Assembly: GCA_002633005.1 (NCBI GenBank)
Contig: NMRA01000438.1
Span: forward strand, 323,624-385,010
Length of the DNA: 61,387 nucleotides
DNA from: Phoronis australis
Lineage: Eukaryota; Animalia; Phoronida
Direction of reading: 5' to 3'
Positions 846-53,317 of the stretch are shown in pieces (positions within the stretch are counted from its first letter, which is position 1; each line of letters starts with the position of its first letter). A program made the position numbers and the translations under genes. The notes beneath the pieces are model-generated. The model searched no databases, was not told the DNA's origin, and saw only the letters and a program-made list of their open reading frames with translations.

Positions 846-1001
846 AAACTCCAACTCTAGCAAACACGATAGATTCCTGCAATTTTGAAAGAGGTCTGTG
901 CGGATGGTCGCAAATTTCACTTGGTGACATCGACAGAGCAACAGAAATTGCGAAGAAACGTTTTGGGCCGTCGGTAGATCACACGAGTGGAAATAGTACA
1001 G
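846..1001 (+). CDS. Gene A MAM exon 1
   Basis: tgtag|AA ACT...SCNFERGLCGWSQISLGDIDRATEIAKKRFGPSVDHTSGNST G|gtattg. Confidence 0.8.
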
Positions 1002-4000
1002 GTATTGCATGTGGGCTGCGCTCCGTAAATCGAGAAAAGGGAGTTCACGCAACTTTGCTAGTATTTGCTAGACATAGCGGTGCGTTGCAACTGCATGTAT
1101 CACATTGTCTATTAACCATCTAGTGGCCATATTTGAGAATGGCTGTTGATGACAGCTGAAACGTAATACCTCATTGTGCTTAAAGACATCACTAACTGCG
1201 ATGTTTCAACGTGATCAATCCGGCTCTTTACTGTAATTTTGAGTATTTCGAATACGTGAACTTTTTGTCTCATTTCTGGTTATTTTTAAGGTAAGAACTT
1301 CTTAAGAATGATAATCAAAATATAAATGTTTAAAATGAAGTCTGTCGGCCATATTTGGTAGCATGAACACAAACAAGTGGTAAAACTTTTCAAAAATGTT
1401 TCGTGCGCTAACTCTGAAGCATATACTTTGGCAATTTTCCATTGTATTTTGAACGGATTTCATAAAATCAGTACCTCCAATATGGCGCCCAGTGGCCTTG
1501 TTGGATTTTTGGTTTTGAAAACATGTGGAAGATTTTAATCTTTGCATATGAAGATTAAAATGCAGGGTTATCGCTCTCCCCAAATGCCGGTTACCGGTGA
1601 TTTCGAAAACGTCCCTGTGTCACGTTTTTCCCGTGTGTGGGTGGGCGCAGGTTGTTACAAACCGGTGCTAATAGCCGCGCTTTCGGTGCTACGATAGACT
1701 GAAGACTGGTTCGAGTTAATCCTTTATTAATCTCGACCGTACGTTCACAAGCCTACCTCAAACAAAACATCCGAGGTAATGTCTGTTCTACGCTCCAGGC
1801 AGTGCTGCGAAGCCTTGACTTGTGATAAACTTCTAAGACACGTTCAGTAACTCAACTGTAATTACTCTCGAGTAATTAACTGATGTTCGATGTATCTAAC
1901 TGTCAACTGCTTGACTGATTGATACAAACCCCTGCTTGTGTATTTATAGACTAATACAATGTTTTAGAACTTTTCACCAATTCAAGCACATGCCAGATCT
2001 TTCCGAAATCTACCCAATCATTCTACAAACATATACTAGTCTCTAGAATATTCCAGACTGTATTAGTCACTGTCATGCTAGAGTCTTCTGATAAAGTTCC
2101 ACGCTATACTGTAGTAAACAAATGACATCATCACTGTACTGACCTCAGGGGTCACGCCAATCAATAACACAAACAGAACAATAAAACAAAATAAAACTAA
2201 GAACAGTGTCAGTGGAAGTTCTGACACCCTGTCGTGAGCGATTTTTGAATATTTATGACGAAATGTCATCATATTTTACTTCTTCCGTGTGGCTTCAAAT
2301 TAGAAGTGATATCTGGTACTGGAAAATCTAACAGTTGCGTTTAATTATAGGAATGTTTAGCATGACTTCACTATGAAGTCATTATGAAGTTTTGAACCCA
2401 GTGTAACGGCATGTCTATTCCTATTTCCGGGTCCAAATTGCGTCATCTACAGCCTTGAACGTCATCACTAAACATCCGCATTGCCTCAGACTTGGCTCAT
2501 GGCCACACAGGGTACGTTGAAGTATTACCACGATACATGTCCGATATGTTTTCTTCTAAACTCAGGAACTTCACAACTTTCCTTTCTATATCTAGGGCAT
2601 TTTCTCTACATTGCCGCAAAGACTCTTGTTGTCTCGCAGAATTTTCCCGCCAGGTGGAGTGGGAGCTGCTTCCAGTTCTGGTACAAAATGTACGGCGGCG
2701 ATTCGATCAAGCACGGTGAGTTGTAACGAACATAACGTAACCGCTGTACTTGGTTGTGGGTGATTTAGAAAGGATATTAGCGCAAAAATATGTATAGAAA
2801 ACCGTTTGCAATTAGTTGTAAACGAGCCTTGTCAAATATAATTTTTTATATTAGACCGTGACAAAATGTGTTTCATTGTAGATTCTATGTCGGGTTCGTT
2901 GGAAGTACACGTGGCTAAAGCAAGTGGCAGTTTGTCAGGATTGTCGCCATGTTTCCACGTTCAGGGAAATCAGCCACACTCTTGGCAGTTAGGTCAGATC
3001 GAAGTCCCCACACTTACCACTGATTTCCAGGTGCGGTATACTGTTTGTGTTCAAATTGTACTCCTAATTCAACTTAGAACATTTATTATAAAGTAAGATT
3101 AGTAAATATCATTGCTGACGACTAAGTATCCTTGCGTTTACATTTTCCATAGTGTTCATTAAAGTAACATTTGTTTGCAGAAACGACGACCTGTAATGCT
3201 TAGAATTTCGTGTCCTTCCAGTTCGTGGTTGCATTTGACCTTTTTATGGATAGCGTGAACGTTAGACGTCTTATGCACAGTGAATTGTGGGAAATCCTTA
3301 GCCCAAATTAGCGACTATTGCACCCAGATACACGATCTGTAGAAAATCTTTTTGAATTTTATTTTTCAAGCAGCCAGAAGTTCAGTTTATCATACAAGGA
3401 AGTAAACACGTACAGGGCTGTAACATCTATTCAAAATCGACTCTTAGCTCACCGAGCAGACGAACGATTGTGTTACACTTTCTGGATTCTGGAATGAATA
3501 ACATGCACCCCACAAATCTAGGCATTGAGTTGCTCAGGCATATTTTCGGTTTTCACCAAAATGTCAATGTTGTCAGCAATATCATGCAAATGATACTGAA
3601 GGTGGTGTATCAGTAATAGCTGCTATACGTGCTAAAACTCTGAAACTACTACATGAAGAAAAAGGTGGGGTTACGCTGAGGTAGGCACGGACAGGGCTGC
3701 ACCCAAGGCACTAACGAACAGAGAAGACACAAAACTGATTGACGGCTGGGGGATCGGCGCGATTTCATGAAATTGGTATAGAGACCGAGTAGGGGTTAAT
3801 ATTAGGTTGGTTTCAATACTCATATTAGAAGGGATACCTGTGCTTGCGAATAACTGAACATAATAGGAGACATGCTAAATACAACTGTTAGCGTTGCGAG
3901 AGCGCAAAGGCACCTTTGGATTGACACAACGAAACGCAAATCCTTTCGTGATCAGACATTTTATGACATTGTAAATTATTGTGCGATTCAGTTGAATATC

Positions 4001-5045
4001 CTTCTGCACAACAGTGGAAATTTGATGATATGGTAGGCGTAAAGAATTTGAAAAAATCGGGGAATATCCCACTGCAATAAAGCCATACCCTGAAAAATAC
4101 AGAACGCAGTCCATCTTCTAACCTATCGCCATCTAGCGACAAGGCTTATTACATCATGTCTCCACTAAATGTTTGTTGGTTACTGTTTTACAGCAACGNG
4201 TTGGTGGAGGGGGGGGGGGGCAATTTATGTGCCGAACCTGGTGCCAACCTTTAGTACAGTGTCAGTTCCTTCCAAGCGTATAAACATTTACGCAAGAAAA
4301 ATGAGACCACTTTTGTACCTGAAAATGTAAATTAATTGTAAGTTTGCTTGACGAGACACAAAGCCTGTGACGGTGTCCCTTTATATCAAAGCTTCTAATT
4401 CATAATCCATATTACCGTACGACGAATGTATGTTCACTCCAAGTTTTACACTTGCTCTAGATCGTCATGAATGCATCGCGTGGCACGTCACCAAACGGTG
4501 TTGCAATAGACGACATCACTTTGTTCCGGTGCTCAAAAGGTGGCGCCACGTTCTCTGTGCAAACAACGGAAGCTACAACTACAGAAAAAAGTCCCACGTT
4601 TCAAACGACAACAACACCGCCAACTTGGCAACCAACAGTGCACTTTATGGAAAGTACCAGGACAAGTGATCTTATGGAAACGCACCGCCCCCTAAACGGC
4701 ACAGGTGGAGAACAGAACGGCACGACAAATGTGGCAAAGGGGACCCAGTCTAAAGAGACTAACACAGGATTACATGTACATGTATTTATTATCGTTGTTG
4801 TTCCTTGTGTAATTATCGCTTTAATAGTAGTTGTAATAACATACATTTACTTCAAGTCGAGAAAACGGAAACGTAACAATGAAGAAGCGGTCGTTGACGA
4901 CAACGTTAACGTTGAACTAAATCCATTGTCTCCCTTGAACTCGACTGCAGTGGAAGTCCCCAGTTGTGCAACGCCCTTGTGTGAGTTTACTGCAAACGGA
5001 GAGGACCAAAAGGTTGACTCAAGGGTCAACGACTCAGATCTTTAA
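846..5045 (+). CDS. Gene A: MAM-domain single-pass membrane protein; exons 846-1001, 2596-2715, 2882-3030, 4461-5045 (first/signal exon uncertain)
   Basis: All exons have AG/GT boundaries with compatible phases 1,1,0. Translation shows MAM motifs SCNFERGLCGW, GPSVDHTSGNSTGHFLY, CFQFWYKMYG, GSLEVHV, GNQPHSWQ and VAIDDITLFRC. These are followed by a Thr-rich stalk, TM VFIIVVVPCVIIALIVVVITYIYF and a basic stop-transfer KSRKRKR. Colinear with gene C. Confidence 0.85.
1653..2226 (-). mobile_element. Possible solo LTR in a gene A intron
   Basis: TG...CA termini; minus-strand TATAAATA (~1941-1948) upstream of AATAAA (~1723-1728); no clean TSD found. Confidence 0.3.
2596..2715 (+). CDS. Gene A MAM exon 2
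   Basis: tctag|GG CAT...[40 protein letters not shown]|gtgag. Confidence 0.85.
2882..3030 (+). CDS. Gene A MAM exon 3
   Basis: tgtag|AT TCT...SMSGSLEVHVAKASGSLSGLSPCFHVQGNQPHSWQLGQIEVPTLTTDFQ|gtgcgg; 149 nt, the same length as the gene C exon. Confidence 0.85.
4461..5045 (+). CDS. Gene A terminal exon (MAM end, stalk, TM, tail)
   Basis: ctctag|ATC GTC ATG..., open to TAA at 5043-5045. Confidence 0.88.
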   Translation: MVMNASRGTSPNGVAIDDITLFRCSKGGATFSVQTTEATTTEKSPTFQTTTTPPTWQPTVHFMESTRTSDLMETHRPLNGTGGEQNGTTNVAKGTQSKETNTGLHVHVFIIVVVPCVIIALIVVVITYIYFKSRKRKRNNEEAVVDDNVNVELNPLSPLNSTAVEVPSCATPLCEFTANGEDQKVDSRVNDSDL

Positions 5046-5629
5046 AACATGTGTGTTCATACACCCTGGTGAAATATGCTTAAAACGTTTATTTCATATT
5101 TTGGGCCGTTGTTTTTTATGTAAGGTCATCGTGAACAGTTTGGCCTAAAATAACCCATTTTGGTTCAGAGAGGTTCAGAAAGTAAAGTAATTTGATAACG
5201 GTTTAAAAGAAGGTAAGAGAAAAAAATCTTTATGATATTTGTGTAGATATTGAACCTCTCTTTCAGAAGGTTGTCTTTGCTTTTTCAAAGGTGTTTCCGT
5301 TAACCTTCATTGGAGTGCCAAAATTCTGGAAACCGTTTTGTATTCGATATTTAGTCATTTTTGAGACGCTTGAGTCATGTTGCGGGAAGTTGGTGACATC
5401 AAATAATAATTTCCATCAATTTGCTGTATGACTAAGAAACTAAAAAAGGGCAACAGCAGTTGGAAAGGACTAACCTTCGCGTATTTTATGGTCCTTAACT
5501 ACGGGCATTCTGCAGCTGTATGCTTTATTTTTGTAACTCAAATTTTGCTATGATGATGAAATCAATTGGCGTCAACTTTTAGATGATTCGATTGCTGCTG
5601 CCCTCTCTGGTAACAATTCCTGGGACTAG

Positions 5630-6115
5630 ATTTCCTTTTTGAAATTTCATGAATGTTGGCCAAAATATTCTGTCTATCAAGGACACAATGGCACATTCGT
5701 GTTTTCGAATGATTCTAACCTGTGCTGCCCCAGAAGTGACAATTTTGTCATTTTGGAGACCGTTCGTATGTCACAGAACAAGTACTGCTATCGGAAAGGG
5801 ACAGCCCCAGACAACCCGATAAACGGCGCAGGTGCAAAACCAAGTGGCAGGAAAAATGTCACAACGGGGAGACTATCTAATGAGCTGAAGTCATATGTAC
5901 CTGCTGTCGTTGTTACTGGTATTATTTGTAGGGGTATTTCCATCGCTGTAGTAAAATGCTTCAAACTGAAAATACGTGAAGGTAACGGTGAACGAACGGT
6001 AGTTGACGACAACGTTAACGTGGAACTAAGTCCATCATCTCCCTTCAACACCACCAGTGTGCAAGTCCCCAATTGTGCAATCTCACTTTTACGAATTCTT
6101 TCTGAACCAATTTGA
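5630..6115 (+). pseudogene. Diverged duplicate of the gene A stalk-TM-tail exon (pseudo-exon or alternative last exon)
   Basis: PINGAGAKPSGRKNV...VVDDNVNVELSPSSPFNTTSVQVPNCA aligns to gene A PLNGTGGEQNGTTNV...VVDDNVNVELNPLSPLNSTAVEVPSCA. The frame is open from a weak tag| at 5629. Confidence 0.65.
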
Positions 6116-7734
6116 TTCCCCTTAAGTGTTCGAGGTAAATAATTTGTTCAGAATCTCGAGCAGGCCTAGTGGAGAGAATTCTGGGTAAGAATCGGCAGGT
6201 GTTGGCGCGTTAATAATTAACGTCCATCGACCTAGATATATTGAGTGCTGATGTTTTACCGACTGGTCTTGGCACCGTATCGTTCCCAAAGGCGTAAGAA
6301 GCGAATACGGGGCACTCATGAAGTTGGGGGATAACGCCCCCCCACTCCCCTGAAAAGTGACCATTAAAATGGGAGGCGTTCGGCGAAGGCAAACTCGGTA
6401 GCGATCGCGAAAGGGTCCAGGAAAACAGAGGGGAGGGGTGCTCACATCTGTTCCGCTCTCCACCAATGAAAATATTCTGCACCTATGGTCCACTTGGAAA
6501 TGCTGATGGAGAATACTCAATAAAAGTCACAAACGATCAGTGCGACATGTTTAAGGATCCTTATTTGAACTAGCCCAGTTCCCTTGACTCCGTAATCAAT
6601 TTGTGTTTTGGTCAGACATGAAAATAGTATTGAGTTTTGAATTAAACTAACACTAAATTATGTGGAAACGAGTAAATTAATGAACTAGGCACGTTGCACA
6701 TGGAGGAGGGAGCACGATCAAAAGAAAAGTGATTAAAAAACGCCGTGCATGTTTAGGGCTTACGAGCACATGTTACGTTCGATAAGCGTGAAAGGCCGTC
6801 TTTACACTGTGGTGTACATGCACATGTATCACCGATGTATTTTATTACGATAAGTGACAGAAGTAACACACGATGTACGATAAATGCAGGCAGTCTGGTA
6901 CATGTTGTACCAGACGTACGGAGGCTGCTCAGGTGGGCACATTGCACTGATCACCTGGACTCAGTGGTCTAGCAGTGTTCCCCAGGAAGCTAACGCGTAT
7001 CCCACGTGCCCACAATGCCTCCTCTTTGATCAACATTAAATCGGACAGATTACGTGTGAAGTAATACATGTAGTTCATATTGTCCGATGAGTTTGTTCAA
7101 CACTTCACCCCAACTATTCCGTGTTTCACTTAATTTTAACGAAGTTTTAGATGTTTCTGTAACCGCCTGTTCTCTCGGATTTTGCCGGAAGAGCACTTGG
7201 GTCCCTTACTAAAGTTAAATTCATTTACGGGCGTGTGATACGATACGCTTACTGCAGCAACCTTCATTTTACACCAAACGGTATACTCGAAAGAGAACTT
7301 TATGTTAGATTAGACATTTCCCCTTCTAAACGACCTCTTTAATTGCTCGATTTGGAACCGGCACATTGTCTTGTATGATAGAAGTACGAAGATTTATGAA
7401 TTTAAGAATAGATGAACGCATGATTTATATTCTTTGTGACTCGCATTTTATTTTTAGGTGTCAAGTTTTTAGAACAGAAACAGGTAAATTTATTGAAAAG
7501 TTTACTCTTTTGAACGATATGTTTTACACGTACATGTAAGTCAAGACAAAGCTGCATCTAAATAACGATTAATAATAGTGGACAGAGTAGTTACCTATCA
7601 GCGACCTGTTTGTGTTTGCGGACCTACATGTAGCTTGGAGCCCGCCCTGGGCAGGAATCTTCGTGTCACATGGTTCAGAGTGGGTGGTCCTTGGTGGTTG
7701 TCCATCACCACCTGGTGACTGTTACTTGGGCGGA

Positions 7735-7820
7735 GGCGCTGGTAAATAGCTGACAAGCCATATCCACTGTCTCTCTTCAATTTCAGTTTGTTGCTCATGA
7801 TTTCGACTGATGTTTCGTTG
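7735..7820 (-). mobile_element. Penelope-like retroelement remnant (C-terminus of the GIY-YIG endonuclease)
   Basis: ETSVEIMSNKLKLKRDSGYGLSAIYQRL resembles the EAIEI...LNRDxGYxLxxIY end of Penelope ORFs (recalled motif). Confidence 0.5.
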
Positions 7821-8170
7821 CATATTTTAGATAGGCGTGTTCAAGTACAGTGTGAACTTAGTAGAAATACAAATGCACACTTACGTTTCAAAATGCCGAT
7901 TAAGACGGTTAATAATTAACATCTCTCTTGCAAACTTAATTAAGCATTGTCAGAATTTCTAATTTTTCTGCTTCTCTTAAAAGTGATAAATGCTTTGTAA
8001 GGGCCTCTGCCAAAGTCTAGGGTATTATCAACCATTTAGCGCAAATCCATATCAAATTAAAGTATGCTTTTTAGAAATCCACAAATAGAATCCTTTCAGC
8101 CCCTTAAGATCTAGATTTACAGCCAGTCATAGAGCAGTTAATAATGAAACGTCAGATAACAACAAAGGTA

Positions 8171-9199
8171 CTAGGAGTGGGTTACTTGAGCGTAGCTATT
8201 TCCGGAAACATTAACAATCACATCCGGTTTGTTGTCACAACACTTATTTACAGGCTCTTCTGTTTTCGATATGGAAACCTTTTTGGTATCCACTGGTTTA
8301 ATTGTTTGTGTTTTCTTTCTACGCCTCAGTAAGCACCACACAACGAGGGCTAGAATAAGTAGGAAACTGAATGTTCCGAGAACGATGCCAACAATTAATC
8401 CACTGTTGTCGACTTTCTCTGAATTCTCAGGTGTCGTCAGTTTTCTCGAAGACAGTTCGGTTGTGTCGGCTGAAGTAGCCGTTGTTGCTGCCACATAAGC
8501 TGTTGCATTATAAATGGCGGTATCGTTGGGGCGCACTGTTGATATCTCCGTGGCCTTTTTCGTAACTGATATTCCCATCTCGGTTGTTGTAATTCCCATC
8601 GTGGTTGTGATGCCTTGTGTTTCAATCGTAGTTGGGAATTGATTAACAGTGACACGCTGAATAGGCGGACTTGTTGCATTTTGAGTTGTCAGTTCAGCAG
8701 CTGTTGTAGTTTCTGTATTGCGAATTGTATCTTCAGTAGTTACAAGTGGTACTGTCGTGTCTCTCACTGTAGTGGGCGTGTCTGCTACTGAAGTGGGCGG
8801 CTCTGTTGCTGTGGTGAGTGGTTCCTTTACTGTTGTGGGCGAGTCTGTTACTGTTGTAGGCGGGTCCGTTACTGTTGTGGGCGGGTCAGTTACAGTTGTG
8901 GGCGGGTCTGTTACTGTGCTGGGCGGGTCCGTCACTGTAGTGGGCGGGTTCGTCACTGTAGTGGGCGGGTCCGTTGCCGTAGTGAGTAGGTATGATTTTG
9001 TTGTGGGCGGTTCTGTTACTGTAGTCGGCGGATCAGCAATTGTAGTGGGAGGGTCCGTTACAGTTGTGAGTGCTTTTGTTGTTCCTTGGGTAGTAACTAG
9101 AGATTGTGTTGTTGGTTCATAAGGACAGTCAATCAGCTTAAAATTGTCGAGAGCAATATCCATGTAAAAGGTTACTCCACGAACAGCCTCAATTACAAT
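8171..9199 (-). CDS. Gene B terminal exon (MAM end, mucin stalk, TM, tail)
   Basis: tttttgcag|ATT GTA ATT GAG; 342-codon open frame. Confidence 0.92.
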   Translation of the reverse strand: MVIEAVRGVTFYMDIALDNFKLIDCPYEPTTQSLVTTQGTTKALTTVTDPPTTIADPPTTVTEPPTTKSYLLTTATDPPTTVTNPPTTVTDPPSTVTDPPTTVTDPPTTVTDPPTTVTDSPTTVKEPLTTATEPPTSVADTPTTVRDTTVPLVTTEDTIRNTETTTAAELTTQNATSPPIQRVTVNQFPTTIETQGITTTMGITTTEMGISVTKKATEISTVRPNDTAIYNATAYVAATTATSADTTELSSRKLTTPENSEKVDNSGLIVGIVLGTFSFLLILALVVWCLLRRRKKTQTIKPVDTKKVSISKTEEPVNKCCDNKPDVIVNVSGNSYAQVTHS

Positions 9200-12100
9200 C
9201 TGCAAAAAATGTATTTCATTTATGAATTATTTTTACCTTACCCTATTCAATATCGCTTTTACACGATCGAACTACTCTAAATTAAGGTAAGTTTTGGAAA
9301 TCGTACTTGAGACATGGCTACACGAGGTGTGGTTACTCTAAGAAAGAAGAGCATTTAGATGATATTGAAACACCACTTCAAGATTATGGTTACTCTGTGC
9401 AATTCAGTTTCACCAACTTAACAGACATAGCATGTCGTCGAAAGGATATGAACTGGAATAAACACAAATAATCCAGTTTGCTACCCATTAGAAGCCTATT
9501 TCGCGCCATTGGCAGATAGCAGAAAGTTGTATTCGCGATTGTTTGCACTTGGGCCTGTTTTACGAAGAGTCTATTGGTCTTTGGCTTTTGGTTTTCGGAT
9601 AAATATCAGTCTACACAGACTTACCCCAGAACAAGTTACTTGTGGAATGAGTTGTCGCTAGGTTGAAGGTTTGCACGGAAGCTGTATTTAAACTCGTGCA
9701 ACTTACTCCAATTGCAACAACTTAACCCCTTTACCGGGGTGGGGTAGCTTTTTCTAAGGCAACAAATTTTGGGCAAGGCAGAAGTACATGTAATGATCAG
9801 CTGCGGTTACCTAACAGGCAGGTCTTCTTTTGTTTGCCGTATTTGCATCATCTGTTCTTTGTTATGCACAGTGCGAAAAACTTTCGCCTTACCCCAGATG
9901 CGTGTGGACACTCCACTTAGAAGTGGGTTACATTACACTTGTGCAAGTTGTTCTAGGGTAGGCTGTGTGTGGACGGGACTTAAGACTGGTTGAAGTCAGA
10001 AAATCTGTCTTCAATTTGAAGTCAAATGTCAGAAATCTGCAGTCTGCTCGACTGAAAGAAAGCAAAACGTTTCAAGAAGCGCAAAGGACAAAAATCAAAT
10101 TTCGACTCAATTCGTAGTCAGACTCACGGTTTTTGACTAGTCAAAGGACAGGAGTCAATGATCGCTTCGACCACGGGTTTAATTTTCGAAGAGTAATGCC
10201 TTTTAACTTTTTGTTAAAAATCTGTGTATGGATGGCGTAGGTTGTTTCACGAAGTTGAGCTAACGTTACATGTTAGAAAATCTGTTACAAAAATCTGTTG
10301 CCTGCTCGGGAACAAACTAAAAGCCGAAGCCAAAGGCCAAGAACAGCCCCCTGACTTCTTTGATGCTAACTCATGACCACTCGAGACTCGACTCGAAAAA
10401 TAACTAGTCGTGCCACTTGAAATGTGCAAGTTTATTCTAAGTGCCTCGACCGTTTGGTAAATTTTACAGTCGAATATCGTATAAACTTTGATGATATCCA
10501 AGACAGAAGAAATCTGAAGCCCGCTCGAATAGACTAAGAGCAAAACGTTTGAGAACGCAAAATGCAAAGATTCATGTATCTTTAAAATTCTTTTGGCTCT
10601 TCGTAGTTAGATTTCTGACTTTCTGACTCTTGGAGAAACAAAATCCTGGTATCTAACAAGAAGTTTGAGAAACTTTGGAATAAATCAACGACGCATACAA
10701 CAATTAGATACTATAAAGGATTAGTGTGGATTGCAACCGTTTACGATTTGGTTGTATTGTCCAATTCTGTGACGGGCTTCACATGTAATATTATCTTCTT
10801 GTTCCTGTGCTAACGTAGACCATTGTACAGCGGCCAACCCGCGTCCCGTGCAAGAAGAGAATTTTTGATTTAGACTGTGCGACGCTATGATATTGGGTTC
10901 ACTTTTCTCCTTACTCAGATGCGAAGTAATTTCTAGGTTTGCAAAGAACTGACAATTCGTTCTTTCTAAAACCACGCTTGGCGAATAAAATGACAGGCTG
11001 TGAAAAGTCAACCTGTAAAGTCTGGCCTCAGCCAATAACAAACTGCTCTCTCGAAGCCCTGGTCTCAAATCCTAAGTGACCAGAGAACAGTTCAAGACCA
11101 ATTTTGTAACCACGAATGGTCTAACTAAACTGTTGTTTTTGTGGTGAGGGCTCGGTTTATAGCCACTTTAAATAAAAATTGTGCTGGTTTGGTTCACCGG
11201 CAGTTGGAAGCTGTCGGGAAGGACTCCGATCGCATTTTCCTAAAAACGAGCTTTCGCGGTATCTCTAAACATGTCGTGCTGGCGTCGTTTTTTTTTCGAC
11301 ACTCTGTCATATTTTCCCTATGTGTAGTTTTTCATAGACATGATTTCTTAACCTGTCACGTGATGTATAAAAACATATTTCTGCAAAAGCACTTCGGAAT
11401 TATCCGGTGCAACGCCACCTTAATAATGCTTGCCGATTGAGTATGTACTTTCTCGAAACTCTTAGGAGTTGGTGAAATTTACTGAAAACGGATTTAATTC
11501 ACAAATCTGTGTGGCTTGGTTACAGCTGATATTTATGAAACATCATTTAACAAACGCAAAGCTTCAGTTAATCGATCACAGCTGGCCAATACAGTGTTTT
11601 GGACGGGTTACAATTTACCTGGAAATCGTACGCAGTGGGAAGCCTGATATATTCACGGTGCCACGTTTTATTCTTATTTCCCACTTTTGTGACAAGTGGT
11701 GTGACGTCAGAAATAGCGACTCCTTGTGGCTTTACATACACTTTCAGACGGCCCGCGGTTTCCGGAGGAGCTGGAGGGGAAAACATCAATAATAATCCAT
11801 TAAATAACAAGAATGGGTAGTTCCGACATTTCAATCAAGCTAACAATTCCAGTCTATCTGGCCGCGAGAACATGTCGACACAACGACAGTCTGCCATCTT
11901 AGTCCCACAAAATTTGATGTGAACAAATAGAGCATTTTAAAGGTACGTGTAGCAATATACAGAAAACGTAAGAGGAGAAGCTCTGTCGCTGATAAAATCA
12001 AGGAAAAGACTTCGTGATTTGATGAATACACGCCTTGTTAAACAATGTACTATTATCTAGTATCTATGAATGTACGACTACTTAAACCATATACTATTAT

Positions 12101-36609: not shown

Positions 36610-36867
36610 ATTAGTACCCATTTGGTACTTGTTATTGAATTTTCTATTTTGCTCGACCCACTTGATAGGCAATGGGCCAATACCCATTTTGTATAATGTA
36701 CCCATTCGGTACTATGCTAACCTGTGCCACTTAGTATCCGATACTCAGTTACACACATTGGGTATCGTAAAAGTGTGTGTTATCTCAATGTATATAAAGG
36801 AACCCATCATGTTCCTTCTGTGAAATATTCATTTGTAGAGCTGTGACCCTGAAATTCCCAATACAAC

Positions 36868-36920
<53 letters not shown>

Positions 36921-42800: not shown

Positions 42801-45140
42801 GTCACTTGAGTTAAGCAAAGGCTACCGCGAGACTGAGCAGAGCGCGTGACACTAGCGCATGACACTTGCAAAATAGAATGAGAAGGTATCAGGTGAAATT
42901 TGTAAGATTTGTGTCCCTTGGACGTTTTTTTCGTCAACACGCGTGATTTCACGTAACTTCCTCCAAATTGCACCCGGTAAGAGGAACTCGAGCAAACCGC
43001 GACAGATTTTCATCGATTTGTTCAAATAATCTTGACTGAATCGTTTTCAGACTTATGGTATGAGTTGCTTATAACGCCATGTGCATATATGCATGTTTCA
43101 TATGATTTTATTTCCTGTATTTTGAAATAAGTAATTTTTTGTGGGAATGTACTATCGCCCCTGTACTGTATGCCTGCGGCATCCATGACGATGTAATTGC
43201 CTACAACAGGGACTGCCAAATCAAACTGGCTAGCGAAAAATCCATTGCGACATGCGAAAGTCAACGCACCGTTCAATCTGTCACATCGTTCTAGCTGTGT
43301 GTTCTGGATAACAGCACGTCAATTTCTGTCTAGAGCCAAGTCCAAACTCATGTCGATGTGTGAAACATATAACGGCGAATTTCCATTGGTTTGCCAGTCC
43401 AGCCCCCTCTCTAAAAGCATCGAACTCTCCACCTCCAGCAAGAATCAACTGTAATTCCGATATACTTGCAAACTTCTGTGGCACTTTGCACGACCTCAGA
43501 TGACTTCTGACGTCTTTAACACAGCTAATAAAGGCCACATTTCCTCTGCAATCACACTTTTGTAACGAAAATTGACCAAATGTACAAGAAAACAACTCTT
43601 CCATATTCTTTTCAGTGACAGGAAGTGCATGTAATCTCGAACCCTAAAGTGCTATTGGTAAAATTAAACAAAGCATGGAGTGTTTCAGAAAATTGGGGAC
43701 TCAAAAGTGAAACTTAAAGTTTTGTGATATTGCATTGTAGATACTAGATCATATATTATAGGTGATGTCTCTGAACTAAAAGAGTAGCCTTAATTCTGTT
43801 GTCAGTCAGAGTAAGGCCATATCACAAAAATGCCCAAATTCGAGGGCCACTTTCAGCACTAAATACATAAGAGACAAGTTTTTTTAAAACAATTATCAAA
43901 GTTCAATCTTAGAAGTGTCTACACAAAGAATTTCCGATATAGCAGGCAGGTTAAGCAACATGTTGCCACTTGTGACTGGCCTGAAAAGTGGTCTCAGAGT
44001 TTTCTCCCCTGCTGGAAATTTAATTGCACCTATGAGTTGAAAATTTCATTTTCTAACTAACCTTACATGAGGCTTTATGACCATCATTGTCAATTTTTGT
44101 CACCAGTATTCCAAGTCTGATTTTTGCCGTTCAAAAACTGCAGTTTTACTGACATGGAAAAATGCAAAATATGCCTTTTTAGCCAAAAAGGTCATATTTC
44201 GGTAACAAAAGGTCATTGAGTGCAAATATTGCAGTGTACTTTGGGCCTGCATCCCAACACATGCACAAAATATTAGCTCTTCATGAGTTTTTGAGTATAC
44301 AGTGATTTTTCATTTTCATATGCTTTTTATCTGGAATCATTCTTTTAAAGTTCAAGGCATGGATTACTTGATAACCTTTGCATACGTTTGAAGAAATTTT
44401 AGCCAGGTTTTGAGACTATTTTCGTGTATAACACATTGTGTTGGTTTTACTTGAATAAAAGTTGCCTGCAACAGTTATTCAATTCTGTTAGTTTTTAGCT
44501 TAGATTCGGTATCGATGTAACTTGAACGACACAGGTAAGAGAATAATTCAAAGCGAGGATTGAGTATACTGCGGACTAGAAGTCCACCTTGAATACTGGA
44601 AAATATAACTATGTCAAAATGGATATACATGTACATGTAGCGATGATGGCAAATTATTCCAATTTCATGTTTTCATATAAAGAGAAAGCGATCAAATCTG
44701 TCCTCTTAATTAGGTTAGATTATAATTTACTAACATTGCATCCAGGTTTTGTGACACCACAGTCTCACCGTCAAATAACGGTGACGAAAATTCAATCTCA
44801 ATATATATATACATGAACACAACCTATAATCACAATAATAAAGTAAAATCGTGTAATTATCAATCTTACTTCTTGGTTCGCTGGAAACAAAGCGCACAAA
44901 AACAGTTTTCATGACAAGCTTACGAAGGCAAGCTTCCGAGGAATGAGCATTTCATATGAAACAGTTTAAAAGGTAGACAATCATCCTCCCTGACGAACCG
45001 CACGCACCGCATCACTACCAGCAATCGTTTCAGGAGAACAAAATTATTTTCTCACAAATGGTATCTCTTATGTTACTCACCAAGTTTTACGTCAGAAAAT
45101 GTTTTCTTCGCGAGGAAGAAAGGTTGGTTTTTTGAATACA
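39885..45140. repeat. Segmental duplication copy 1 (39885-40720 + 44350-45140), homologous to 59720-61387
   Basis: Long colinear identity, from caggatttcttgtcattagaggttggatcc to gcgaggaagaaaggt.ggttttt.gaataca. Confidence 0.92.
40721..44345 (-). mobile_element. ~3.6-kb DNA transposon with a degenerate transposase (Sola-like), absent from the duplicate block
   Basis: Imperfect TIRs (GAGCAATTCCATATAAAAACCAGATG vs GAATGATTCCAGATAAAAAGCATATG) next to TTAA; empty site at ~60590. ORF 43604-43281 contains CVKDVRSHL..SELQLIL..ICFTHRHEFGLG..CCYPEH and continues across frameshifts. The superfamily assignment is tentative. Confidence 0.7.
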
Positions 45141-45218: not shown

Positions 45219-45806
45219 TCAGGGTATACTCATATAAGTAACGTTACAAACTTCTAAAGTACCCGACCGCGGACTTGAGTCAAAAGAAGATGGTGGATTT
45301 GGTTTGACGTAAATGTGATCGTCTGCTACCGTTACTACACCATTGTGTTTGCGTTTGTTCATTCTCGAGATAACTATGACGATAACAGCGACTATGACGA
45401 CAAATCCAACGCCACTGGAGACACCAATGATTATGGGCAAAAGCGACTCATTTTTTTCGTCCTCCTGTGTTTTCCCAATAACAGCAGGCGAAGAGGTTTT
45501 ACTATCATCTTTGCCTGGTTTCCCACCACGGTCGTTTGCATTGTGATCTTTTGAGGGTATAGTACTATGTAATGTTGCCTTGGTGAGTTCTACCAATTCC
45601 AAAGTTGTTTGAGGAGTTGCGCTTGTGGTTGTCACGGCTTGTGTCGTCTTCACTGAGAGTGTCGCTGTTGTAACTTGATAAGTTGGATAAGTGACCACTG
45701 TTGACACTTGGGTTGTGGCGCTATCTTTTGAGCATCGGAACAAAGTGACGTCATCAATTGCAATATCACTATAATAGGACGCACCACGCGTTGCATTCAC
45801 GACGAT
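45219..45806 (-). CDS. Gene C terminal exon
   Basis: gttccag|ATC GTC GTG...[25 protein letters not shown]...; open to TGA. Confidence 0.92.
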   Translation of the reverse strand: MVVNATRGASYYSDIAIDDVTLFRCSKDSATTQVSTVVTYPTYQVTTATLSVKTTQAVTTTSATPQTTLELVELTKATLHSTIPSKDHNANDRGGKPGKDDSKTSSPAVIGKTQEDEKNESLLPIIIGVSSGVGFVVIVAVIVIVISRMNKRKHNGVVTVADDHIYVKPNPPSSFDSSPRSGTLEVCNVTYMSIP

Positions 45807-48800
45807 CTGGAACAACAACAAACTTGAAATAAAACAATTTCAAGTTCGGAGAACCTTAAATGATTTCAAATTTCTGATGTGCAGAAAAAATGTTTCAGTC
45901 TTTGATATGACTATTAGTCGTGATTAATATCTTTACCGGACGACTTGCATCATTATAGTCATGAAACCATTAACATTTTTTATTTTCTATTTACTTATTT
46001 CACACAGGTGCCAACAAATACAGAATACAAATAAAACAAAAGTTCAAGTGCAATGAAATGATGATAGCAAGTCTAATGACATTTGGCATTACGCCACCCT
46101 TAAATATTGTCACAGTAGTTATGATCACGTCCGAATCATTTCTAACGTTATACAATTAACATCAAGAGCGATAACGTAATAATACGTGCCTCAAGTTGAC
46201 GAACAGTTTTAATTACAGAAAATTAAGCTTCTTTTAGAAACTTATTAACAAAGTTTCCAGTGACAGGGGAAGTTCGGAAGGCAAAGTTAGCAGCTGCAGT
46301 GCAAATAATCCATCAGACTAGTGTCACTAGACTGAAAACTTGGAAACCGAAACTCAAGTTTGATTTCATATCGGGGCTTGTTTCAAAGATCAATGAGTAT
46401 GCGGTACATCTACCTGAAAACGTGTAGTCAGTCTGGGGACTTGTATCTGACCTAAATGCCAAACGTCTTGTTGGTTTCCCTGTACGTGGAAAGATGTCGA
46501 CAACCTAGACAAATTGTCACCAGGTTTGGATACAAATACTTCCAACGAACCCACCATGGAATCTACAATAAAGAATGTGTAAGTGAAGTTAATTCTGGAA
46601 GCCACAAAAGCAAACTTATTTTAATTATAACTTGCTGTTTCAAAAATTCTAAAATTCAGTATTAAATTACGAAACTGAAATTTTGATTTATTTTTTCAGG
46701 AAGTTAAAGGGAATGTAAATTATGTTGTACTTGTATAATCCATGTTCTGGAAGTCAATAAACAACTTTCTTGACAAACGAATAGTATTTGCCCTTTCACA
46801 GGATTGGCATCACGTTTCCACCCTTTGGTTGAATTACAAAGGCCGGTTTGAAGCAAGAACGAATCTAATGTGAACAGAACTGTAGATGACACCGAATTCA
46901 TTACGGTAAGTGAACAAATCAAGTCTGGACAGAAGCCACTGGATTATTGCGCTTTAAGAACCATCCCATTGATTTTGAAGCAAGTGATCAATTTTGTTCA
47001 CACATAATTGCAGGTTTTACCTAGAATTATAGAAATCTTTCAAAGGATTAATTTCGCAATTAAAGTTTACCTAGTTTTCTATTAAGTGCTCAGGAAGTTT
47101 GACCTCGAGTGCTGAGTTCTGTTAAGATATTCACATACATCAGCGCAATAAGAGTACATGGAATTATTCATACATGTATTACTACGCGCAGTTGCGTCCG
47201 TGGTATCAAGCGACAACGGATCAAACAATAAAGTTAATGAGCGTTTCATTTTGTTTCTTTTCAACTGCGCAATGTGACAGAATGTAAAAAGTCAACTCAT
47301 TAGCACCGGGCAGGAAATACGCACTCGAAGTAATGGGGCACACTCTGCACACTTGAAAGCGGGCGTAAGTGCGGCAAATCCTAGCTATCGTGAAGTGTTC
47401 GTGGGTTTCAGAAATTCCAAGTGCATTCCTTTCCTTATAGACCTTTTCCAAGATAGGATTTTTGTCCAGGTTCCCTTGAATTCATGGTGCTAACCTGTTA
47501 GGTCAGGACGGGAGACCGCCAAAGGTTTAAAAGACCTTGTGTTCAGTGTTTTCAACGTCAGCGGTTATACGCCTTGTTCAACGAGATGGCGATGTTGTGC
47601 CACATTCGGCCCTGCTCAAGCAGTTGGGAAACTCTCAATTGGTTTAGTCAGAGTTACCATAGACAGAGGCAGATCTACGTTTTCAGGAAGAGTGGGCGGG
47701 GTGTTTAGGATTCGAGCAAATGTGAGGCGCGTAGCGCCGAGCGCAAGGAAGATTTTTTGTGGTTATTAGTAACTGATTTCGTTTTTCTGATCCTGTCCCA
47801 AGGGGGGTTGTACTCCGTGAACCCCCCCCCCTGTAGATCCGCCTCTGATAGAATCATACGCGCGAGCATTGCATCTTACGCACGAACCACCTACAAACCT
47901 ATGAATCACGCATACGAACAAAAATCATGCGCCCAAACCACAAAAATCATACATACGAACACAAAACCATACATATGAACAAAAAACCATACACACGAGC
48001 ATCGAATCACACGCACGAACACTTTATTGTTTGGTGATTCGTGCGTATGATTCAGATGCTCGTCAATATGATTTGTGTTACTATGTGTGATATTTTTGTG
48101 GTTCGTGCGCATGATTTTTGTTCCTATGCGTGATATTTGGGTTCGTATGCATGATTCATTGACTCGTATGCAAGAGTCATAGGTTTGCAGGTGGCTCGTG
48201 CGTATGATTCGGATGCTCGTGCGTATGGTACCCCTGTTAGTGTGCCTTATACTTACAGCCATTTAACCAACATACGCTCTCAAATTGATTAGCTATGACT
48301 AGGTTTTATCAAGTTTTCGTACCGTATAACTACACGTTCTGCAAGTAAACTTCGAAGTTTTTGTTTTACTTGAAATGTGCTCCATACAACTTACCGCTCA
48401 TGCCTATAGCGCCGCTATATATGTGGTACCAGAACTGGAAACAGCTACCACTCCACTTAGCGGAGAAATTCTGCGAAATTAGAACGGCCGATTCTCCTTC
48501 CTTCCGCGGGGCAGACGACTCGGTGAAGAGAAAATGACCTAAATGCAAACGAAATGATTTGAAAGGCTATCAAAAAGTCGAGTGTAAGTCCTATTAAAAG
48601 TGCTTATCTTCTTCAAAGACCATTGGCCAAAATTGTTCGCAACCGAGGGTGAAATGAATAGCAAACTAAGGGCACTTTTGCAACGGTTTAGATCATAAAA
48701 CTGGTCTCAACAGGTTGGTTACTCATTGATCTCTGGGCTTAAACACAGAGCATAGAAAACTTGCAGTTCCTTACAGCTTAAGAGCAACTTAAGTTGGTTT

Positions 48801-51800
48801 TCAAGGCAAGTTAATTTACGCGCTGTTGATTCTTTTCTAGTCCAGAACTCATTTCTAATCTGGGAAGAATATTCTGAGACCACAGAGGCGGATCCAGGAT
48901 TTTTAAAGGGGGTGTTGGATCAACGATTTTTAAACAGGGGGTCCAGGTCAACAATTTGAAAATTCTAGATTTGATACATAGGCGGATTTAGGGGGGGGGG
49001 CCCAGGGGGCCCGACCCCCCCTTGGCTGCCGCAAAAAATAAAACAGCAAGAGCGTAGGGAAATGTTGAGTTTATTAATTAACCCCAGTACTTAAAATTAT
49101 ACGGATGAAAAAAAAAATTAAATGTGTGCAGTTTTATTGTTGAGGGGGGGGGCTCAAATCCAATTTCAAGTGTCAAATTCGGAACACGGCGCATTCGTAA
49201 CGGAACTAGGGCTAAGTATAGGCTCTCCCGCGATATCCCAGGCGACCGGCAGTGGCGCTGCGCACTACGACTCCGTTTCCGTCGTCTGCTCCACTGTGCA
49301 ATGAAGAAAATTTACTTCATTTTTTAAAGAAAATGGAACCTGAGTGACGTTGAAAAAACAGAAGCTGCTGGTAAGATGTGAATTTTAATCGAAGCCTTAG
49401 TGAATCACTCAGAAACTCGCAATACTCTCTTTGTCAAACCTTATCTTAAGACGATTTCCAAAGCAATCCCGTCATTATTGCCAACAAGAAAAAACGGATT
49501 TGGTCTTTTGGGCATTTGAAGACTATTTTAAATACGACAAATTTGTTAAGAATCGATGGCACAAAACGTGTAATAAGCATTACAAAAGGAAGTAGGTTTC
49601 GCGCGCAAACGCTGTGGACCATAAACAAGTAGGTCTCTTAATAAAACATTAGTAGTAAAAGCGTGGTGGTGTAGTGCTAATCCACGCGCTCGCTAAGCAC
49701 CAGGTTGTGAGTACGAGTCTGTATGACACGTGTTCAGTGTTTTTTTTTCTTTTTTTTTCTTGGATAATACTTCAGGAATCAAGGAAAATGCTTGATTTTT
49801 AAAGGTAAAAACAGAAAATTTTCCTGGGGTTTGCCCCCCCTCCCGACCTCCCCCCATTCGGTGCTATGCCCATCTACAATCGTGGTTCAGTTTGCGCAAA
49901 TGCTTACAGCCGGACAAAATGTTGGAGCCCCCTTGTGATATCCTTGATCCGCCACTGTGATATTACTAAATCAAGGGAAAAAGGGAATGTACGAACCCCT
50001 TTGACCCCCTGGATCCGCGTATGAATCAGGGTTCGTTCTGTAACTCATAAATATAAGCGAATGCTTGTATTGATCACGTGCTTTGCTCGTAATTTTAGAA
50101 ATTAAATATCACGAACACTCTCGTGATCAAATCTAACCCAGCCTACGGCGACTGCCAAGGGGGTCTTATCAAAAGTTAATTGTCTTTGACATAAGGTGGG
50201 TATGAAGTCGTTTTGATGTACATTGTAACGTGCATAACAAATTCAGCAACGCAAAACATTCATCCCACGACACTGTCAGTCACCATTTGGCAATAAGCTA
50301 ATGGCACCGATAAGCCAAACATTAGACAACTTCGACAAAGCACGATACCTTAAAATTTTGCAGCTGTCCTAATGTACGATTCAGAAATTTAATCAGAGCC
50401 ACGGAACCAGCGCGCATCCCACCATGTTAATTGGAAGGTATGAAATGGCGGCTTACGGCAATTCAGCATACACATGTAAGTGAATCGGCATACAATACCT
50501 TTATTGCTACCAAGGGTGTGATCCACTGACGGGCCAGTCGACCGTGTTGGCGTTGTACTGGCGCGGGTCCAGTCAAAGTCATCACTTGAACTTTGTGACC
50601 ATCCACACAAATTCCTTTCAAAGTTACAGGAATGTAGCGTAACTGCAGGATATCAATTCATTAATTAACAATTAGTGCGACTATGAACATATGTGGACTA
50701 TCGCCTGATACGTTAGGGTGAAACCACTACTGTTAGAATTTGCTATTTTATATCTCTGGTGAAAGCGTCCAACAATAACCCACATAGTAGCTCTTCCGGT
50801 TTTAAAGTCAGTGATGTCTCGTTAAGTACTCACTTGGCCTGATCATTTAAAATTCACAAATACATTCTCTGGCATCTTTCGATAAAGTAGAAAACTGATC
50901 GTTCGTGATCTATAATAGAAATGCCACTCGCACAGAGCGACAATTTTATTTTTTGTATAACACAAGTACACAGCTAGGCTTGAACTATGATCAAAATAAG
51001 TCGGAAGAGTTCGAGCCAGAGATTAAAATTTTGATTTTTGCTTGAAATCTCAAATTTTTACTCGAGTTTGTAGCTCGAATTTCGGAATGACGAAGTGCGA
51101 ACTTCAACGTGAAACACATATGTCTAAACTGTTATGTACTCGACTATAGAATTCGAACGGAAAATGTCGAGTGTTGCAATGTTTGAGCTTGGAACAGATC
51201 TTTGATCTGGAAATGTACTAGCAAACACGTCGTACACTTTTATACTTTCTTACCCGGTAGAGATACAATTGTGAAAAGTATCTGAAACTAATCGAAAATG
51301 TTTCTATGAATCACCAGCCTAAAACTCCAGCAAGCTGGCAAAAAGAGACACAACGTGGTTATCTATATTGTTTTGTTAATTACGAGATAACCATCTAAGT
51401 CGTTACAGAACAACAGAATAAGTAAACATTTGTCATTTCTTTTTAATGCCAGGTAGGGTAGAGTGGGACAAGACGTCCAGTAGGGTGGTGGAACGCCCAC
51501 GTCAAACTAGGAAGCACGTGCACCACGCGTGCAAGCGCCTACTTGACTCTTTTACTAGCTCAACAGGAAATCGTTTTATTTTTAAAACCTTTCTTCTCAG
51601 TAGAACACTTATTACTGTGTGAGTAATATTTATACCATGCGCTCTTGAAAATTTTTGTCCTCATGAATTTCCCGAGATGAATGGATATTTTATTACGCTT
51701 TCATGGAATAAAAAAATCTCAAAAATGAACGTTTCAGCTAGTCAGGAAATCGCAACAAGTAACCAGTACAAGCGCCGCTATTGCCAGTAAAGACATTAAA

Positions 51801-53317
51801 ATCACATGTGGCCTGAGAAAAATAGTTGAGCACCTTCCTTAATATGAATGACAGGATTTTTCAAACAAATACTTGACTCAAAACAGCATCTAAGGACAAA
51901 TTCTGTTTAAGCCGCCTGAAAAGGCTACAATTGTCAAAAGAAGCCTTGTTGTGAACCCAACTGTTGATTCAATCACAAAAAGAGTCCAGGACTGTGGAAG
52001 GGGCAACCGCTGGTGACGGTGAAACTAATATGCTCATAGATTCAGCATTGCAACTGAGTAGAATGGAGTCCGGTCTTGTAGAAAATCTCGGGCCGCCAGG
52101 TTGAGCTAGCCTGGAATTATTTGACAAAAGTATCGAGTAAACGTAGATTTCGTGTTTTAAATCTGAGGAATGACTTAAATCCAACGCCTTCTGAGTGGCC
52201 GTGTTAGTTTTGCTTTGAAGTGTAAAGATTTTACGAATGGAACCTGCTTACCTGCTTGTGTTTTATTCACTACATTTTTTTTTGTTTTCATGAACGCCAA
52301 GACCGAAGTCCGCCCCTGTCCAATAATTTTCACACAGCTATAACTGACTATAGCTTATCTTAATTTAAAAATATCGCCTGTTTCCGATTCGCGTGTTTTG
52401 CGACAGTGAGTTTCTTGTACATCAGTGAGAACTGCATTCCCGAGGGGGTTTGAGTCAAATGTTAAGCTGTTCGCCTATACATGTAGATGTAAAAAGCTGA
52501 CGAATAATTATGTTTGTGTAAATCACAAACATTACTTTGACTGTGGTCAGCATGTGTATGTCTTTGTGGCCAATTTGCCCGCAAGGAGCCATAAGAGGGG
52601 AGGGGGCCCAAAATGTTGCCTAGAAGAATTGGTCAAAGCGCGATTGTATGCACAGGCTGCCCGAAAGTTCCGGGGCCTAGCGATGTGAACCTGGTGTTCC
52701 CAATTTCTATCCGAGGACTTAAAAAACCACGACCGGGATTCCGCCGCAGTCTGGCCCCCCGGCTGCCGTTCCAAGTTGGTGCACTCGATACTTCTTCACG
52801 TTGTTGCTGTTTAATTTTGCTTACACCAGCCAAGGGGGGGGGCTTGGGCTCCCCCCTAAATCCGCCTATGGTACAAATCTCTCTGGATGGAGCATAAAAA
52901 CGAATTCTGAAAACTCAACAACAATATTGTTCAGTAAGCTTAACTGTGCACCACATCTGGGCGCGAAATAACGTCTTTCATTGATAAAGGCGACGGTCTT
53001 TGTGGCGATCTAGTAAACCCAGAGACATTTGTATTTCGACAATGGAGAAATATACAAAATATATGACTTTGGCAAAACCTTACAACTGTGGTGGTTTAGT
53101 TCTTCCAGTTCCTCCAGTACCTACCGTGTGTTTACAACGCCATGTGATTAACAAATTGAACGTTTCCTGTCACCAAATACAATTACCATCAGTGTCATCA
53201 AACGGGCAATTCTGTTAACGATACGAGAAACCACCTACCTGTCAACTTTTCACAGGAGACAACCATAAGGAAAAGAGCAACAAGTAAAAACACACAAAGC
53301 AGATGTTCCATGGCCAT
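45219..53317 (-). CDS. Gene C: MAM-domain single-pass membrane protein with ITIM, ~367 aa; exons 53317-53239, 50642-50499, 48538-48395, 46562-46414, 45806-45219
   Basis: Canonical splice sites with phases 1,1,1,0; 1104 nt with no stop. Order: signal [22 protein letters not shown], complete MAM, Thr stalk, [27 protein letters not shown], tail ending VTYMSIP. Confidence 0.88.
46414..46562 (-). CDS. Gene C MAM exon 3
   Basis: tgtag|AT TCC...[49 protein letters not shown]|gtagat. Confidence 0.9.
47664..47847. mobile_element. MITE CAGAGGC(A/G)GATCTAC with direct flanks ATAGA
   Basis: TIR cagaggcagatctac / gtagatccgcctctg; ATAGA on both sides. Confidence 0.7.
47853..48228. mobile_element. Foldback element with ~20-bp subrepeats
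   Basis: Left arm tacgcacgaaccacctacaaacctatga is the reverse complement of right arm tcataggtttgcaggtggctcgtgcgta. Confidence 0.75.
48395..48538 (-). CDS. Gene C MAM exon 2
   Basis: tttag|GT CAT...[48 protein letters not shown]|gtaagt. Confidence 0.9.
48884..50022. mobile_element. Nested GGCGGAT-type (hAT-like) MITEs in a gene C intron
   Basis: Left ends cagaggcggatccagg (48884) and taggcggatttagggggg (48979); right ends gatccgccactg (~49957) and cccctggatccgcgtatg (~50022). Confidence 0.6.
50499..50642 (-). CDS. Gene C MAM exon 1
   Basis: ctgcag|TT ACG...[45 protein letters not shown]|gtattg. Confidence 0.92.
53239..53317 (-). CDS. Gene C signal-peptide exon
   Basis: [27 protein letters not shown]|gtaggt, phase 1. 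Confidence 0.8.

Follow-up and report, generated by a model that had tools for sequence, protein, structure and literature searches.

The stretch of DNA analysed here, referred to below as the window (61,387 nucleotides of a Phoronis australis contig), contains three related genes, A, B and C, predicted to encode surface receptors with a MAM domain, a Thr-rich stalk and a transmembrane (TM) segment. The three paralogs and one fragment lie within 53 kb; the locus is rich in repeats. In each gene, the last exon encodes the end of the MAM domain, the Thr-rich stalk, the TM segment and the tail, and the boundaries and phases (1,1,0) of the MAM exons are common to all three. Every protein has a single MAM domain and a single, uncharged TM segment. 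The original prediction, which proposed a family of paired receptors, was borne out in that clustered paralogs with differing tails are present, and all four tail motifs that it quoted were located in the window. It had further assumed one architecture of signal peptide, MAM, Thr-rich stalk and TM. The MAM domain, stalk, TM segment and exon phases are indeed shared, but the architectures are not identical, since the MAM domain of B is interrupted by two ShK-like exons, the most unusual feature here and one that the original prediction had not noted, and a signal peptide is clear for C only. To follow expression, we used four raw-read RNA runs with the same species label (X1, X2, X3 and X4), the samples of which are possibly pooled. 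A was detected in all four runs and B in one, so that the two were not co-detected in three of the four. The models of A and B could be confirmed as spliced in RNA.

Gene C is located on the minus strand and consists of a signal-peptide exon (53239-53317), MAM exons 1 (50499-50642), 2 (48395-48538) and 3 (46414-46562) and a last exon (45219-45806), for which the model predicts the MAM end, a 95-aa stalk, the TM segment and a 48-aa tail. As anticipated, this tail has two tyrosines 25 residues apart, in DDHIYVKP (45323-45300, minus strand) and VTYMSI (45242-45225, minus strand). Because DNA directly 3' of C recurs as far as the last base of the window, a further paralog may lie beyond the window end.

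Gene A is encoded on the plus strand by MAM exons 1 (846-1001), 2 (2596-2715) and 3 (2882-3030) and a last exon (4461-5045) that comprises the MAM end, an 80-aa Ser/Thr stalk, the TM segment and a 63-aa tail. The 5' end of A is outside the window, and no signal-peptide exon of this gene was found within it. RNA reads crossed the three introns in X1, X2 and X3 (6-28 reads per main joint), as did one X4 contig, and the open frame and correct splicing were kept in all four runs. The MAM domain is degenerate: exon 1, which has lost a conserved Trp, exists in two divergent types among the RNA samples, and exon 2 has a deletion of eight residues and a variable 3' loop. The tail contains no tyrosine, as had been claimed. 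The proposed alignment of DDNVNVEL (4896-4919, plus strand) with DDHIYVKP, with Asn for Tyr, falls on a position that is itself variable, as 6 nt are missing at this site in most A reads (15/15 in X1 and 20/21 in X2).

A partial duplicate of the TM and tail of A (open frame 5630-6115, plus strand) is situated beyond the A 3' UTR and includes a second copy of DDNVNVEL (6005-6028, plus strand). It had been described as an extra TM exon with an intramembrane Arg. The Arg is present in the hydrophobic stretch, but a working exon was not found: the copy is headless, having no MAM exons of its own, and has essentially no reads (mean depth of the tail bin 0, 0, 0.83 and 0 across the four runs). A joint in X3 (4907-6058, 17 reads) was rejected as use of the duplicate exon because the depth past the joint was merely 0.83. 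The Arg-bearing copy is therefore apparently silent. Since the duplicate keeps the C stop codon in the C frame, and A and the duplicate have a common frameshift just before the motif, the sequences support the derivation of A from a C-like gene, with both tail tyrosines lost by substitution and frameshift.

Gene B (minus strand) differs from its paralogs in the ectodomain. Its MAM exons 1 (15614-15745), 2 (13934-14074) and 3 (11619-11770) are separated by two additional exons of phase 1-1: ShK-like exon a (15199-15303) between MAM exons 1 and 2, and ShK exon b (12736-12855) between MAM exons 2 and 3. Exon b shows the six-Cys pattern and scored 23.3 bits against Pfam ShK (PF01549; cut-off 20.9 bits). 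Exon a, with four Cys and a score of 17.9 bits, falls below the cut-off and is referred to as ShK-like only. The residues absent from exon a are exactly the first and last Cys, which pair with each other in the ShK pattern; this looks like a concerted loss. Both exons are open and in frame, and RNA reads join MAM1-ShKa-MAM2-ShKb-MAM3 (8, 10, 5 and 12 reads for the successive joints in X1), with no exon-skipping joint among those listed. These direct splice joints to MAM exons led us to reject a separate nested gene for the ShK exons. The reads also show a loose end leading into the last exon (8171-9199), which encodes the MAM end, a Thr-rich stalk of 240 aa whose coding sequence contains a 21-bp repeat about 15 times, the TM segment and a 51-aa tail ending, as predicted, in NSYAQV (8200-8183, minus strand). 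A candidate first exon encoding a signal peptide was recognised from sequence only at 33592-33655 (minus strand; phase-1 GTGAGT donor), and was preferred to an earlier candidate at 18529-18597. Both insertion sites map to coil or turn, outside strands, in the structure modelled for a homologous MAM protein, and the two inserts are accordingly predicted to sit in surface loops. The host domain is, judged by its sequence, intact: with the inserts removed it reached 146.5 bits against a profile built from 119 homologous domains, compared with 164.5 for C and 98.6 for A. Among solved structures, MAM exon 2 was best matched by the MAM domain 8yt7, which is like that of class C scavenger receptors (SR-C; E 2.4e-05). 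No solved structure matched exon b by sequence, and its structure model had a mean pLDDT of 56.8. The matching introns of A and C contained no ShK remnants.

In a quick tree with 60 other MAM domains, A, B and C were on one side of a branch (SH-aLRT 82), A grouped with C (SH-aLRT 99), and the A branch was more than twice as long as the C branch. Identity within the MAM domain was 61% for A and C (94/155), 44% for B and C (69/158) and 35% for A and B (52/147). The three proteins have in common a loop of 12 residues. Of 119 homologous domains examined, 50 matched the pattern, and in 48 of these the loop comprises five residues.

The original prediction had proposed to look for allelic diversity and dN/dS on the MAM loops. 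Marked variation between samples was indeed found, but diversifying selection was not: among the A variants listed (40 of 904), MAM differences comprised 14 replacement and 4 silent changes, a ratio (pN/pS 1.08) that matches neutrality and was not significant in a test for positive selection (p 1.0). The second type of A exon 1 differs at eight sites, seven of them residue-changing, and the A loop corresponding to the one that holds ShK exon b in B has two forms, one of which is C-like. Between A and C, dN/dS was about 0.37 over 79 codons. With this ratio, the neutral pN/pS, the missing Trp and eight residues, and the long branch, A may simply be decaying. In the covered exons of B, all seven two-allele sites among the variants listed (40 of 59) fell into the ShK exons, where each of the six codons touched is changed and every Cys is spared; no such site is listed for the 284 nt of MAM exons with comparable coverage, as against seven in the 225 nt of the ShK exons (Fisher p 0.003), bearing in mind that for both genes reads from paralogs can mimic alleles.

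Paired receptors have been defined as membrane proteins that are related and well conserved in their ectodomains, encoded in a small cluster and expressed in overlapping immune cells, with an ITIM-bearing inhibitory member and a short-tailed activating member that has an Arg or Lys in its TM segment (as outlined in PMC3533184). The small gene cluster is present here. VTYMSI of C fits the ITIM consensus, whereas NSYAQV and HIYVKP do not; an ITIM of this type also arose in 10% of 20,000 shuffles of the C tail. An activating member was not found among the genes of the window, with A, B and C having uncharged TM segments and the Arg copy lacking a head, and no tail of these genes contains an ITAM or hemITAM. 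The proposed opposition of signalling tails is thus unsupported, as A has neither a charged TM residue nor an ITAM. Of the paired-receptor proposal as a whole, the clustered paralogs, the differing tails and the tyrosine loss of A stand; the activating member does not, and B, with 35-44% MAM identity, has a different ectodomain. Since an ITIM is present in C only, the A tyrosines are lost and the Arg copy is headless with essentially no reads, an arrangement of an inhibitory C and a decoy A is possible on the sequence data.

We consider it about an even chance (roughly 0.5) that A, B and C belong to a family of recognition receptors on the cell surface that is lineage-specific and changes fast, each presenting a MAM domain, with ShK modules in B, on a Thr-rich stalk. 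The stalk is predicted to hold the MAM domain away from the membrane in each receptor, and the MAM loops, including the two with ShK in B, would provide a variable ligand-binding surface for a surface molecule, whether foreign or self. Ligand binding would be relayed inward via the C-terminal tyrosine motifs of C and B, by phosphatase docking in C or by clathrin-adaptor uptake in either, while A would bind its ligand but send no signal, serving as a decoy or competitor.

The way in which such receptors work would best be compared to that of class C scavenger receptors or of the polymorphic transmembrane clusters of snails. The shrimp class C receptor MjSRC uses its MAM domain to bind a viral protein and is taken up by endocytosis (reported in PMC5222524), and numerous diversifying sites are described for the Drosophila Sr-C genes, a small set of paralogs (according to PMC12962805). 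Like A, B and C, these receptors (Drosophila Sr-CI to CIV and MjSRC) are type I proteins with a single MAM domain. They also have two CCP domains, which were not found here: neither CCP nor somatomedin-B gave a Pfam match in 77 of the 136 stop-free intronic and upstream stretches of 40 aa or more (77 of the 78 with at least two Cys), the 5' end of A lying outside the window. The excerpts cited mention neither ShK inserts nor an ITIM-type tail for these receptors. In snails, resistance has been mapped to clustered, polymorphic genes for single-pass proteins. The Biomphalaria GRC/PTC1 and PTC2 genes resemble those studied here in their clustering, their single TM segment and the strong divergence of their alleles; unlike the MAM genes, the PTC2 genes contain no known domain apart from the TM segment (all as given in PMC7494358).

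The most serious alternative, to which we nevertheless give a rather low probability, is that the encoded proteins serve adhesion or form part of the glycocalyx in an epithelium, gamete or mineralising tissue; MAM would then act in homophilic or matrix binding and the tyrosines would be ordinary YxxPhi sorting signals, as in endosomal MAM proteins such as endotubin/MAMDC4. Both YMSI of C and YAQV of B fit endocytic YxxPhi, MAM has been described as adhesive and dimerising (in PMC9848320), and the MAM membrane protein endotubin belongs to apical endosomes (as stated in PMC5756061). Besides, all seven proteins matched by MAM exon 1 of C have Pfam MAM, six of them being named MAM/LDL-receptor proteins. 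This explanation accounts neither for the concentration of replacement changes in the ShK exons nor for the mosaic loop types of A. Also unlikely, in our estimation, is an undescribed invertebrate recognition system in which a MAM scaffold would present interchangeable variable loops. In one member, entire ShK mini-domains gained by exon shuffling would form these loops and concentrate the allelic changes, the ITIM-bearing C would be set against a decoy A without tyrosines, and further, perhaps activating, members would lie beyond the window.

We regard as doubtful a true paired-receptor system, in which C would be inhibitory and the activating members would lie outside the window or in unsampled tissues. 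The canonical ITIM of C has relics in A and the duplicate, like the relic ITIM of KIR2DS2, and ITIM decay is the thought origin of non-inhibitory members in paired families (both from PMC3533184); the TM Arg of the duplicate and the suggested further paralog point in the same direction, as does the ITIM/hemITAM switching of Botryllus FcoR, an invertebrate precedent (noted in PMC12582321). The apparent silence of the headless copy, the lack of an ITAM or hemITAM and the separate detection of A and B argue against it. Vertebrate paired receptors (KIR, LILR, PILR and Siglec-5/14) likewise form small clusters with related ectodomains, one ITIM member and a sister with a decayed ITIM; their ectodomains are Ig or lectin rather than MAM, and the present genes have one ITIM only and no intact activating member with a charged TM segment. 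FcoR (as presented in PMC12582321) and Hydractinia Alr are also clustered, variable type I invertebrate proteins with differing tyrosine motifs, but belong to the Ig superfamily and are genetically tied to allorecognition, as opposed to MAM without hemITAM here. Least probable is birth-and-death duplication under relaxed selection, with C as the working ancestral type, A and the duplicate decaying and the ShK exons a tolerated shuffling accident without a binding role: the neutral-looking variation and degenerate MAM of A, the headless duplicate and the repeat-rich locus would fit, but not the intact frame and splicing of A in all runs, the open, in-frame ShK exons with no skipping joint listed, the sparing of every Cys by the listed variants or the seemingly concerted Cys loss in exon a.

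Protein searches returned no close relative, a negative of little weight given that the queries were single exons. MAM exon 1 of C matched only the seven MAM proteins (six long, one a 91-aa fragment), the 11 matches of its last exon were confined to the MAM end and stalk start, and none of 240 candidates aligned with the stalk end, TM segment and tail of B. A search with the ShK alignment retained none of seven candidates, and the ShK-in-MAM architecture was absent among the matches obtained. The best Atlas scores were 0.76 for the C last exon and 0.93 for ShK exon b, to unnamed 35-aa clusters. The Hydra astacins HMP1, HMP2 and HAS7 combine ShKT and MAM in one protein, as does B (see PMC9848320); there, both are additional domains of proteases, according to the excerpt cited, whereas in B ShK is nested in MAM and no protease domain is present. 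Searching mainly openly readable main texts, we came across neither ShK placed within MAM nor a MAM-based ITIM receptor family. For a predicted membrane protein whose MAM domain encloses two ShK modules, as seen here at the RNA level, we could not find an earlier description.

Standard annotation would break B into fragments. With the A/C pair, the loss of an ITIM can be traced in receptors that are of neither Ig nor lectin type. Even if the genes merely encode adhesion proteins, the nested ShK would still be a clean example of domain insertion. If the inserts are a variable binding surface, symmetric phase-1 exons dropped into loop-sited introns would be a simple route to new recognition specificities in invertebrates.

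The window is intron-rich animal DNA, and splice signals are the basis of all three gene models: gene A (846-5045, + strand), gene B (8171-15745, - strand, with a first exon probably further upstream) and gene C (45219-53317, - strand). Each contains three MAM exons with identical boundaries and phases, and the last exon encodes the end of MAM, then a stalk rich in Ser and Thr (80 aa in A, 240 in B, 95 in C; Ser+Thr 33-38%), a single hydrophobic segment and a tail of 48-63 aa. A protein search with gene C MAM exon 1 gave named matches from echinoderms, molluscs and one ant. In a quick tree with 60 homologous domains, drawn at random from 119, the MAM domains of A, B and C clustered together (SH-aLRT 82), and A and C, which are 61% identical in MAM, were grouped with SH-aLRT 99. 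All three share a 12-residue loop that has 5 residues in 48 of 50 pattern-matched homologous domains. The joint grouping and the common loop make A, B and C a single local family, in which A and C are closer to each other than to B.

The DNA just 3' of gene C (39828-40721 and 44360-45140) is repeated in the same orientation at 57905-61386 (86-94% identity). This copy reaches the last bases of the window, ~79 nt short of the expected position of the C stop codon, and a fourth, C-like gene may start just beyond. Upstream of gene C lies a local tandem duplication (54539-54971 and 55219-55647; 93% over 434 nt). Elsewhere we found an AT-rich 40-bp minisatellite of ~121 copies (24253-29046), a long inverted repeat with ~250-nt arms (21388-22064; 84%; hairpin or MITE-like) and a dispersed repeat family (16983-18269, 34457-34913, 36577-37783, 38401-38825), whose copy at 16.7-18.3 kb attracted many stranded RNA reads.

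Transcription was followed in three raw-read runs (X1, X2, X3) and one contig set (X4) with the same species label. All three gene A introns were spliced out in each of the raw-read runs and in one contig of X4. Since the 97 extra 5' bases of this contig are absent from positions 1-20000, the first exon of gene A is probably upstream of the window. Gene B was covered, on the correct strand, by X1 only. The predicted gene C keeps its reading frame intact and uses canonical splice sites; it also has a good candidate signal-peptide exon, and its MAM scores higher than those of A and B. Only three signal-peptide exon candidates exist in the window, including that of gene C and 33592-33655 (- strand), which is likely the gene B exon and would make its first intron ~17.8 kb long. 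Reads at 15658-15710 cross-map from another MAM-coding transcript outside the window (13 loose ends in X1, 3 in X2).

The motifs quoted in the original prediction were all found where expected, and the MAM, stalk and TM exons are indeed common to the paralogs, but gene B has two additional symmetric phase-1 exons between its MAM exons, which had been overlooked. ShKb (12736-12855, - strand) encodes a complete ShK domain, which at 23.3 bits exceeds the cut-off of 20.9, and ShKa (15199-15303, - strand) is ShK-like, lacking the first and last Cys. X1 reads spanned the joints MAM1-ShKa (8), ShKa-MAM2 (10), MAM2-ShKb (5) and ShKb-MAM3 (12), all with GT-AG ends; 6 loose ends ran into the last exon, and no joint skipping the ShK exons reached the threshold of 3 reads in X1. 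With the inserts removed in silico, the gene B MAM scored 146.5 bits as a single domain, whereas with them it broke into three consecutive profile pieces. On the structure predicted by AlphaFold for a homologous MAM protein (mean pLDDT 75.6), one intron position falls in a coil before a strand and the other in a hairpin turn; the prediction is thus that each insert projects from a MAM loop. No ShK remnants were found in the matching introns of A and C. Insertion into MAM is the simplest history; an older MAM-ShK repeat that lost exons is a less simple possibility. Astacins also combine ShKT and MAM in one protein (PMC9848320), whereas the nesting is a feature of gene B. Among the papers listed by literature searches, none reported ShK nested in MAM, and this member is apparently undescribed.

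ITIM-type tails had been proposed, and VTYMSI of gene C fits the consensus, which 10% of the shuffled versions of this tail match too; the other motifs (DDHIYVKP in C, NSYAQV in B, DDNVNVEL in A) do not. The endocytic YxxPhi pattern fits both VTYMSI and YAQV of gene B. That the proteins serve adhesion or trafficking and carry plain sorting signals is the strongest alternative, though an unlikely one; it leaves unexplained the replacement changes in the ShK exons and the loop forms of A described below. The tails of A, B and C lack ITAM and hemITAM. The gene A tail is homologous to that of C: a single base separates the two at the first Tyr codon, and the second motif has been shifted out of place by a frameshift common to A and a downstream partial copy of its 3' end (5630-6115, + strand; 78% identity), beyond the A 3' UTR. 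Since this copy, read in the frame of C, also retains a stop at the C stop position, the C-type tail is likely ancestral, both tyrosines having been lost in A. The same copy, noted originally as an extra TM exon with an intramembrane Arg, has no MAM or other ectodomain exons and essentially no RNA reads; its best reading is as a remnant rather than an activating receptor. Paired receptors, as defined in PMC3533184, resemble A, B and C in forming a cluster, but the window holds no activating member. The definition also includes similar ectodomains and an inhibitory member with an ITIM; MAM identity is 61% for A-C, 44% for B-C and 35% for A-B, and the one ITIM-type motif is VTYMSI in the predicted gene C. 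That inhibitory and activating receptors form a true pair, some of whose members lie elsewhere, is improbable. The original prediction thus holds in part, both as an observation and as an interpretation. The cluster of expressed, variable MAM receptors is real; the paired system was not demonstrated.

In X1, the ShK exons of gene B contained at least 7 two-allele sites (7 or 8 of 10-12 reads); those listed changed the codon in 6 of 6 cases, never one for Cys, and none of the listed sites fell in 284 nt of MAM exons with similar coverage (p 0.003), counts that rest on 40 of 59 rows in a sample that may be pooled. X3 carried a gene A exon-1 type with 8 differing sites, 7 of them replacements, which was the minority type in X1 and X2. 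In X3, the loop at the end of gene A exon 2, at the position of ShKb in gene B, had two forms (20 versus 13 reads), one nearly identical to that of C. The differences listed for the gene A MAM region (40 of 904 rows, in which alleles and paralogs are indistinguishable) comprised 14 replacement and 4 silent changes, the neutral expectation. The gene A MAM is degenerate (98.6 bits) and dN/dS between A and C is near 0.37. These figures call for caution over the variation; that the genes are duplicates in decay, which they would suit, ranks as the least likely explanation.

Everything beyond exon structure, splicing and variation we infer, and our preferred reading, with a probability of about one half, is that A, B and C are variable recognition receptors. 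Closest in way of working are the class C scavenger receptors, in which MAM mediates binding and uptake (PMC5222524) and whose paralogs are diversifying (PMC12962805); these have CCP domains, which were not found in A, B and C in a Pfam search that covered 77 of 136 stop-free intronic or upstream stretches of at least 40 aa, and the three are not members of that class. As recognition receptors, they would bind ligand through the MAM loops or, in B, the ShK inserts, and stalk length would set how far out this occurs. The terminal tyrosines of C and B would link the receptor to phosphatase or uptake machinery, and A would bind ligand without signalling.
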